NCBI RefSeq assembly: GCF_003334385.1
Contig: NZ_QOWN01000022.1
DNA: 64,000 bases
Direction: 5' to 3' (one strand)
From: Escherichia coli
Lineage (GTDB): Bacteria > Pseudomonadota > Gammaproteobacteria > Enterobacterales > Enterobacteriaceae
Below, in pieces: positions 11,411 to 11,525 of this stretch (its first letter is position 1; each line of letters begins with the position of its first letter). The notes beneath the pieces were generated by a model, which did not search any database, had not been told where the DNA came from, and saw nothing but the letters and a program-made list of their open reading frames with translations. Made by a program: the position numbers and the translations under genes.

Positions 11411-11525
11411 CAAGTTGCATCAAGGCGGCAAGTGAGCGAATCCCGATGAGCTTACTCAGGTAAGTGATTCGGGGGAGCGAACGCAGCCAAGGCAGAGGCG
11501 GCTTGAAGGATGAAGTGTATATAAA
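11411..11525. repeat. ERIC/IRU-like intergenic repeat
   Basis: gagcgaatcccgatgagcttactcaggtaagtgattcgggggagcgaacgcagccaa matches the ERIC central inverted-repeat consensus (AATCCCC..GAGCTTAC..AGTAAGTGA..GGGGTGAGCGA..GCAGCCAA). Confidence 0.6.

Follow-up and report, generated by a model that had tools for sequence, protein, structure and literature searches.

The stretch of DNA that we analysed (the window, 64 kb in all) is E. coli K-12-like, and a position in it is converted to MG1655 (NC_000913.3) coordinates by adding 1,351,119. It contains the genes of the puu locus, of which puuD, puuR, puuC, puuB and puuE are treated in published work as a single puuDRCBE operon that is repressed by PuuR and induced by putrescine (PMC9397018, PMC11968103, PMC10100675). 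The spacer between puuR and puuC runs from 11350 to 11623 and, as previously given, measures 274 nt between the puuR stop codon (11347-11349) and the puuC ATG (11624). Within it we identified a full-length ERIC/IRU (RU-1) element of 127 nt at 11395-11521 (MG1655 1362514-1362640), which begins 46 nt beyond the puuR stop. The features of the locus are as follows.

puuA: ends at 9867, minus strand (locus annotation)
puuD: 9989/10001-10765 (locus annotation)
puuR: 10792-11349, plus strand, the upstream cistron (locus annotation)
REP-like G+C-rich hairpin, GCCGGGTAAGCGCAATGCGCCCGGC: 11367-11391, 25 nt, plus strand, between the puuR stop and ERIC; seen in the sequence and kept in empty and filled alleles and in outgroups
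ERIC/IRU (RU-1) element: 11395-11521, plus strand; recognised by consensus identity and hairpin, with the same stretch (net 125 nt) missing in empty-site genomes
Left terminal inverted repeat (TIR): 11395-11421; the TA at 11395-11396 is the left copy of the duplicated target
Central ERIC dyad, ATCCCG..GCTTAC-TCAG-GTAAGT..CGGGGG: 11441-11474; the target of ERIC-PCR primers, forming the innermost helices of the fold
Right TIR: 11495-11521; the TA at 11520-11521 is the right copy of the duplicated target
Constrained 63 nt directly before the puuC ATG: 11561-11623, plus strand, holding the Shine-Dalgarno (SD) sequence; recognised by cross-species identity
puuC: 11624-13110, plus strand, the downstream cistron; split here into open reading frames 11624-12187 and 12121-13110
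puuB: 13112-14392 (locus annotation)
puuE: 14430-15695 (locus annotation)

Two G+C-rich hairpins, at 11367-11391 and 11545-11559, flank the ERIC insertion site. The second has a terminator-like score on the minus strand, where CGGGCCGTATGCCCG is followed by TTTATTTCTG, and no minus-strand gene reads into it. For puuDRCBE, PMC10100675 gives a repeat entry, REPv112a-b. The hairpin at 11367-11391 probably belongs to the pair of REPs named REP112a-b in EcoCyc, and the two hairpins together may correspond to that pair.

The 63 nt that precede puuC stand out by their conservation. At 62-63 of 63 positions the window is identical to E. albertii, E. whittamii and two Pseudocitrobacter species, while in the same four species 436-442 of the first 477 nt of puuC match (about 91-93%). 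This pattern suggests that 11561-11623 is probably a promoter, operator or other regulatory region for puuCBE, or a 5'-UTR element; we identified no motif in the conserved 11561-11623 segment. The ERIC element sits upstream of it, in the poorly conserved middle of the spacer, and leaves the constrained region intact.

In the puuC gene of the window a run of C has lost 1 bp at 12160 (MG1655 1363279; GGCCCGG to GGCCGG), and the resulting frameshift gives a truncated product of 187 aa and the two open reading frames listed above. Among the 3,294 complete E. coli genomes that match the 61-nt stretch around this site, not one shares the deletion, so it either arose privately in the source strain or reflects an error in sequencing, and the puuC downstream of ERIC may be a pseudogene in that strain. 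A second difference lies at 10226 (MG1655 1361345), where the C of MG1655 and of a second K-12 strain is replaced by T in the window, changing Pro76 of PuuD to Ser (P76S). Because of P76S and the puuC frameshift, we take the window to come from a relative of K-12 and not from the reference sequence. In a diarrhoeal isolate, E. coli E1739 (NZ_CM180506.1), puuC is disrupted by an IS1 copy in codons 5-7, outside ERIC, with a 9-bp duplication, CATCTGGCT, equivalent to window 11636-11644. Together, the E1739 insertion and the frameshift of the window suggest that loss of puuC is tolerated without serious cost. Elsewhere in the window, Rfam gathering-threshold matches mark McaS/IsrA (53338-53433, minus strand), FnrS (56811-56928, plus strand) and the Rac prophage antitoxin sRNA RalA (61238-61416, plus strand), all of them expected K-12 sRNA genes that are unconnected with ERIC.

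A full-length ERIC element in the puuR-puuC spacer

We aligned the E. coli ERIC consensus (127 nt, from PMC2759123) to 11395-11521 and found 106 of 127 positions identical (83.5%) in an alignment free of gaps; blastn gave E = 1.9e-34. An inverted-repeat search placed the TIRs at 11395-11421 and 11495-11521 (27 nt, 74% complementary), with TATACAC at the left terminus and GTGTATA at the right, so that both repeats have TA ends. Pattern matching located the ERIC dyad core, GAGCTTAC-TCAG-GTAAGTGA, at 11448-11467. As plus-strand RNA, the element folds at -52.5 kcal/mol (z = -6.2, equalled by 0 of 200 shuffled sequences) into a single long, imperfect hairpin. Positions 11395 and 11521 form its outermost pair, and many internal loops break its stem; the minus-strand fold is weaker (-37.1, z = -3.7). 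Consensus identity, the z-score of the fold, the dyad and the TIRs together place the element far beyond chance.

These results bear out the preliminary description of an ERIC-like repeat between puuR and puuC and refine its extent. The repeat had been put at 11411-11525, at roughly 115 bp; its location stands, and its boundaries move to 11395-11521, since the earlier span clipped 16 nt from the left end and added 4 nt at the right. It does end 102 nt before the puuC ATG, close to the 100 bp first estimated. At 127 of 274 nt, the element takes up 46% of the spacer and does not fill most of it, as had been claimed.

Orientation needs some care, as Delihas 2007 (PMC2759123) prints the ORF-bearing ERIC strand, which is the reverse complement of the Wilson and Sharp consensus. 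Because the strand printed there is the opposite one, the plus strand of the window, which is the puu sense strand, has the canonical orientation of Hulton and of Wilson and Sharp.

When the 127-nt element was used as a query, all 5,426 complete E. coli genomes matched, at a median of 10 places per genome (range 2-16), nearly all of them chromosomal, as ERIC would be expected to do in this species. Pattern search and blastn found no second ERIC copy in the 64-kb window. In every character that could be tested, the element agrees with the ERIC/IRU/RU-1 family and differs in none: the length of 127 nt, the 83.5% consensus identity, the dyad, the TA-ended TIRs, the TA duplication, multi-copy dispersal at low copy number in E. 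coli, a transcribed intergenic (extragenic) site, and polymorphic presence or absence among strains. It belongs to ERIC, the non-autonomous miniature inverted-repeat transposable elements (MITEs) of Enterobacteriaceae. The family has reportedly been known since 1990-91, from descriptions by Sharples and Lloyd in 1990 and by Hulton and colleagues in 1991 under the names ERIC, IRU and RU-1, and the ERIC copies of K-12 are said to have been catalogued already by Blattner and colleagues in 1997 and by Wilson and Sharp in 2006. The element is thus one already known K-12 ERIC copy, and there is nothing new in its identity.

At the Rfam gathering threshold there was no match at the element, and we know of no Rfam family for ERIC as such. 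Permissive E-values brought up a single match, in which model positions 1-129 of RF02818 (V_AS5, Vibrio RNA AS5) aligned to 11394-11517 on the plus strand with 44.8 bits (E = 5e-9). Membership in RF02818 is ruled out by this score, which compares with a gathering score of 96, and by a central loop region that differs. The V_AS5 model has the same long-hairpin architecture as the puu ERIC, and this Vibrio antisense RNA family is therefore probably built on ERIC-like repeats; our literature search found nothing linking Vibrio AS5 RNA to ERIC.

Alleles at the insertion site and their distribution

To follow the element at this site we queried the complete E. coli genomes with 701 nt over the spacer, which gave matches in 4,390 of 5,426. 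Coverage was full in some genomes; in others it was 83%, in two pieces that spanned 576 nt, and thus showed a 125-nt gap. By a 167-nt query consisting of the element and 20-nt flanks, the puuR-puuC site is filled in 2,794/5,426 genomes, about half of sequenced E. coli, with K-12, BL21, IAI1 and O26 among the carriers. The spacer is present without the element in about 1,580 complete genomes, and in these it takes one of two forms. The alignment with O157:H7 (EDL933 and Sakai are both CA-empty) shows an empty junction that reads ...GGCAATC-CA-TAAAGAATG, in place of ...GGCAATC-TATACAC...GTGTATA-TAAAGAATG at the filled site. The other form, AATC-TA-TAAAG (TA-empty), is present in 527 genomes, strains 7/2 and APEC 102026 among them, according to a 40-nt junction query specific to that allele; a 62-nt query was unable to part TA-empty from filled alleles, because filled genomes match it in two pieces. 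The remainder, about 1,050 genomes, has the CA-empty allele. About 1,036 of the 5,426 genomes (19%) gave no megablast match to the puuR-puuC junction, and in these the locus may be absent, rearranged or diverged.

The filled allele can be written AATC-TA[123 nt]TA-TAAAG, a net difference of 125 nt from the empty site. Since it consists of 123 nt between two TA copies, and since 527 genomes show the exact target that this predicts, the insertion duplicated a TA target. TA duplication on ERIC insertion has been described before (PMC2229807, Table 1).

Scanning species-representative genomes by pattern, we obtained six puuC loci, those of E. albertii, E. whittamii, Escherichia sp. E1V33, Pseudocitrobacter faecalis, P. 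vendiensis and E. coli E69. The site is empty in every one, with CA at the junction in four. As the outgroups are all empty, the empty state is ancestral and ERIC was gained within E. coli. Among the filled genomes examined, the element has an identical position and orientation, and only 2 of its 127 sites differ; it goes back to a single insertion within the species. The flanking SNP haplotypes are mosaic, with the CA-empty strain D3 nearest to the K-12 flank and the CA-empty strain MS1685 sharing the flank of the TA-empty group. The TA-empty allele could be either the pre-insertion state or the product of precise loss. The site is a clean three-allele natural polymorphism (CA-empty, TA-empty and filled) that illustrates a TA-duplicating insertion.

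Transcription across the element

We turned to published transcript maps of MG1655, in which SMRT-Cappable-seq Supplementary Data 2 (Yan et al. 2018, PMC6131387) reports two operon variants here. From a transcription start site (TSS) at 1361666, inside puuD (window 10547), the primary transcript fully covers b1299|b1300 (puuR|puuC); from the main promoter, at TSS 1361051, the longest transcript fully covers only b1298|b1299 (puuD|puuR) and is called 'ShorterEnd'. Under the rules of that study, only fully covered genes are listed, and where no transcription termination site (TTS) is called the longest read sets the operon (PMC6131387). Because puuR and puuC are both fully covered, at least one capped primary transcript crosses 1362514-1362640, and the element is therefore co-transcribed. 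The long-read puuR|puuC transcript (PMC6131387) and the lack of a terminator after the hairpin thus confirm the proposal that the element is transcribed within puuDRCBE. That the longest transcript from 1361051 fully covers no more than puuD|puuR could mean that RNA ends or is processed close to the element, or simply that read length was limiting.

Two further observations concern puuD. The start inside it (window 10547) is classed as 'novel' in the published SMRT-Cappable-seq data, and with this TSS (1361666) puuR would be served by a promoter of its own, independent of the one at puuD that PuuR controls. Adams et al. also list a Term-seq 3' end within puuD, at 1361446 (window 10327).

We considered whether the insertion might reduce transcription into puuCBE, by adding 125 nt of structured, untranslated RNA that causes pausing or partial termination (Rho- or hairpin-dependent) and so less read-through. 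The untranslated gap between puuR and puuC does grow from 149 nt without the insertion to 274 nt with it, and the 'ShorterEnd' call for the transcript from TSS 1361051 would fit such an effect. An intrinsic terminator is nevertheless ruled out, as the hairpin has no U tract and is followed by TAAAGAATG; in 11200-11700 we found no terminator-like site on the plus strand. The transcribed strand of the element is G-rich (39 G vs 24 C) and highly structured, which would make for poor Rho loading, and a transcript through both the element and puuC exists (PMC6131387). We consider a termination effect very unlikely. In the published maps of RNA ends, the long reads have no TTS called at 13624xx-13627xx (PMC6131387), and Adams et al., in their Term-seq tables, give neither puuR nor puuC a 3' end.

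The same region was scanned for signals that might act on the DNA. A search for the PuuR box, which we take to be AAAATATAATGAACA after Nemoto and colleagues (2012), found no match near puuC. All three matches (9833, 9928 and 10005) fall in the control region between puuA and puuD, and any control of puuCBE by PuuR and putrescine must therefore arrive by read-through. The promoter scan found no promoter-like site in or at the element on the plus strand. The sole promoter-like site, at 11598-11625, overlaps the puuC ATG, scores at chance level and was rejected. Maciag et al. 2011 (PMC3141248) describe a sigma-S-dependent puuCBE start upstream of puuC, mapped in vitro. With this start of its own, puuC may be expressed in part from mRNA that lacks the element.

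The mapped start also leaves room for the idea that the element itself acts on puuC as DNA, as a promoter, protein-binding site, cruciform or recombination hotspot, and its right junction does form a TATATAAA stretch at 11518-11525. Against this stand the empty promoter scan, in which just 9-11 nt separate a candidate -35 (TTGAAG, 11503-11508) from the TATA stretch, and the reviews consulted, which give no ERIC DNA motifs besides the TIRs (PMC2229807). The conserved candidate regulatory region, moreover, is downstream of the element and older than the insertion. We regard a role at the DNA level as extremely improbable.

Predicted effect of the hairpin on puu mRNA

To compare the RNA with and without the element, we folded 335 nt across the filled spacer and the corresponding 210 nt of the CA-empty and TA-empty alleles. 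In the predicted folds the element is a self-contained RNA domain, and all other helices are alike in the three alleles. The predicted mean unpaired probability of the puuC SD and AUG is 0.44 in the filled allele and 0.45 and 0.47 in the empty ones. With accessibility thus equal in the presence and absence of the element, the model predicts no effect on the initiation of puuC translation. The polycistronic puu RNA would accordingly be expected to carry ERIC as an autonomously folded, long, imperfect hairpin of 127 nt that would alter neither the remaining structure of the spacer nor the ribosome-binding site (RBS) of puuC.

We think it probable that the element is a tolerated, near-neutral passenger in the puu operon. 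All three alleles are common across E. coli, and weak or no selection on them fits this distribution. Control of puuC by the element is unlikely. Our literature search found nothing on a puuC promoter, on the puuR-puuC spacer or on an effect of ERIC on the puu operon.

If the hairpin acts at all, it would resemble the stem-loops of REP/BIME elements. These can block 3' exonucleases and so stabilise the upstream cistron. Like REP/BIME sequences (for example at malE-malF), the puu ERIC is intercistronic, transcribed and able to form a stable stem-loop, and a REP-like hairpin adjoins it. The two differ in sequence family, length and number: REP/BIME units are about 35 nt long and occur in several hundred copies, whereas ERIC is 127 nt long, MITE-like (with TIRs and a TA duplication) and present in about 10-20 copies. 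By slowing 3'-to-5' exonucleases in the REP manner, the ERIC hairpin would form a barrier that modestly protects the upstream puuD-puuR segment once the polycistronic RNA is cut.

Another known comparison is with the Correia/NEMIS elements of Neisseria, which are also MITEs with a TA duplication, are likewise co-transcribed, and form a hairpin that affects the flanking mRNA; their sequence is unrelated to that of the puu ERIC. NEMIS hairpins are substrates of RNase III and can carry promoters or IHF sites. In the puu ERIC we found none of these NEMIS-type features, whether RNase III-related, promoter or IHF.

Yersinia ERICs, with which the puu copy has in common the repeat family, co-transcription with flanking genes and a long RNA hairpin, provide a further model. 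ERICs there shift the relative levels of the flanking cistrons, and do so by orientation (De Gregorio et al. 2005, summarised in PMC2229807 and PMC3184786). Because Yersinia ERICs alter the levels of flanking cistrons, a measurable effect in the puu operon is possible, and by this analogy a role in mRNA stability is plausible.

One form of such a role, which builds on the preliminary suggestion that the stem-loop could influence stability or processing between the two genes, would make the transcribed hairpin a functional determinant of processing or stability that uncouples puuDR from puuCBE, for instance through RNase E or RNase III cleavage, with puuC expression then depending on the strain. 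Co-transcription of the element, the very high stability of its hairpin (-52.5 kcal/mol), the orientation-dependent changes in flanking cistrons in Yersinia (PMC2229807, PMC3184786), and the long reads from the puuD promoter, the longest of which covers puuD|puuR only, are all in keeping with it. The published tables, however, contain no assigned 3' end or TTS in the spacer; neither puuR nor puuC is listed in the RNase III supplements of Gordon 2017, and the tiling-array paper on RNase E and RNase III mentions neither ERIC nor puu. With its many internal loops the stem would be a poor RNase III substrate, the accessibility of the puuC RBS is predicted to be unchanged, and puuC has its own sigma-S start (PMC3141248). 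The three alleles, all of them common, also argue against a strong phenotype. We therefore hold a functional role in processing or stability to be doubtful, with the balance of evidence well against it.

The mechanism worked out in Yersinia is more specific. In it, ribosomes that finish translating the upstream gene, here puuR, would block the folding of ERIC and so expose, in the right arm, a site for RNase E; the upstream RNA, here puuDR, would then decay. It is the sole ERIC mechanism with experimental support (De Gregorio et al. 2005, summarised in PMC2229807 and PMC3184786). The destabilising Yersinia ERICs overlap or abut stop codons, whereas the puu copy lies 46 nt beyond, behind the 25-nt REP-like hairpin, where a terminating ribosome would be out of reach. 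Because the element begins 46 nt past the stop, the ribosome-dependent mechanism is probably inapplicable. The orientation is probably also opposite to that of copies close to stop codons: the ORF-bearing strand is the one found fused in frame to gene 3' ends (PMC2759123), and the sense strand of puu corresponds to its reverse complement. There is, in our view, very little chance that this switch operates at puuR.

Our preferred reading thus remains that of a near-neutral passenger. That the ERIC hairpin shifts the ratio of puuDR (repressor and hydrolase) to puuCBE (oxidative enzymes), and so constitutes a lineage-specific regulatory change, seems to us quite unlikely. If it were true, filled lineages (K-12, BL21, IAI1, O26) and empty ones (O157:H7 and the TA-empty genomes) would differ heritably in putrescine catabolism. 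An effect of ERIC on expression inside an operon has been demonstrated only in Yersinia, and the natural E. coli alleles lend themselves to a simple test. The importance of the present finding is small: the element is an ordinary member of its family, whose boundaries are now corrected, whose natural alleles are defined and whose transcription is documented by published long reads. An effect in E. coli, if real, would add modestly to what is known of MITE biology and of how strains differ in polyamine catabolism.
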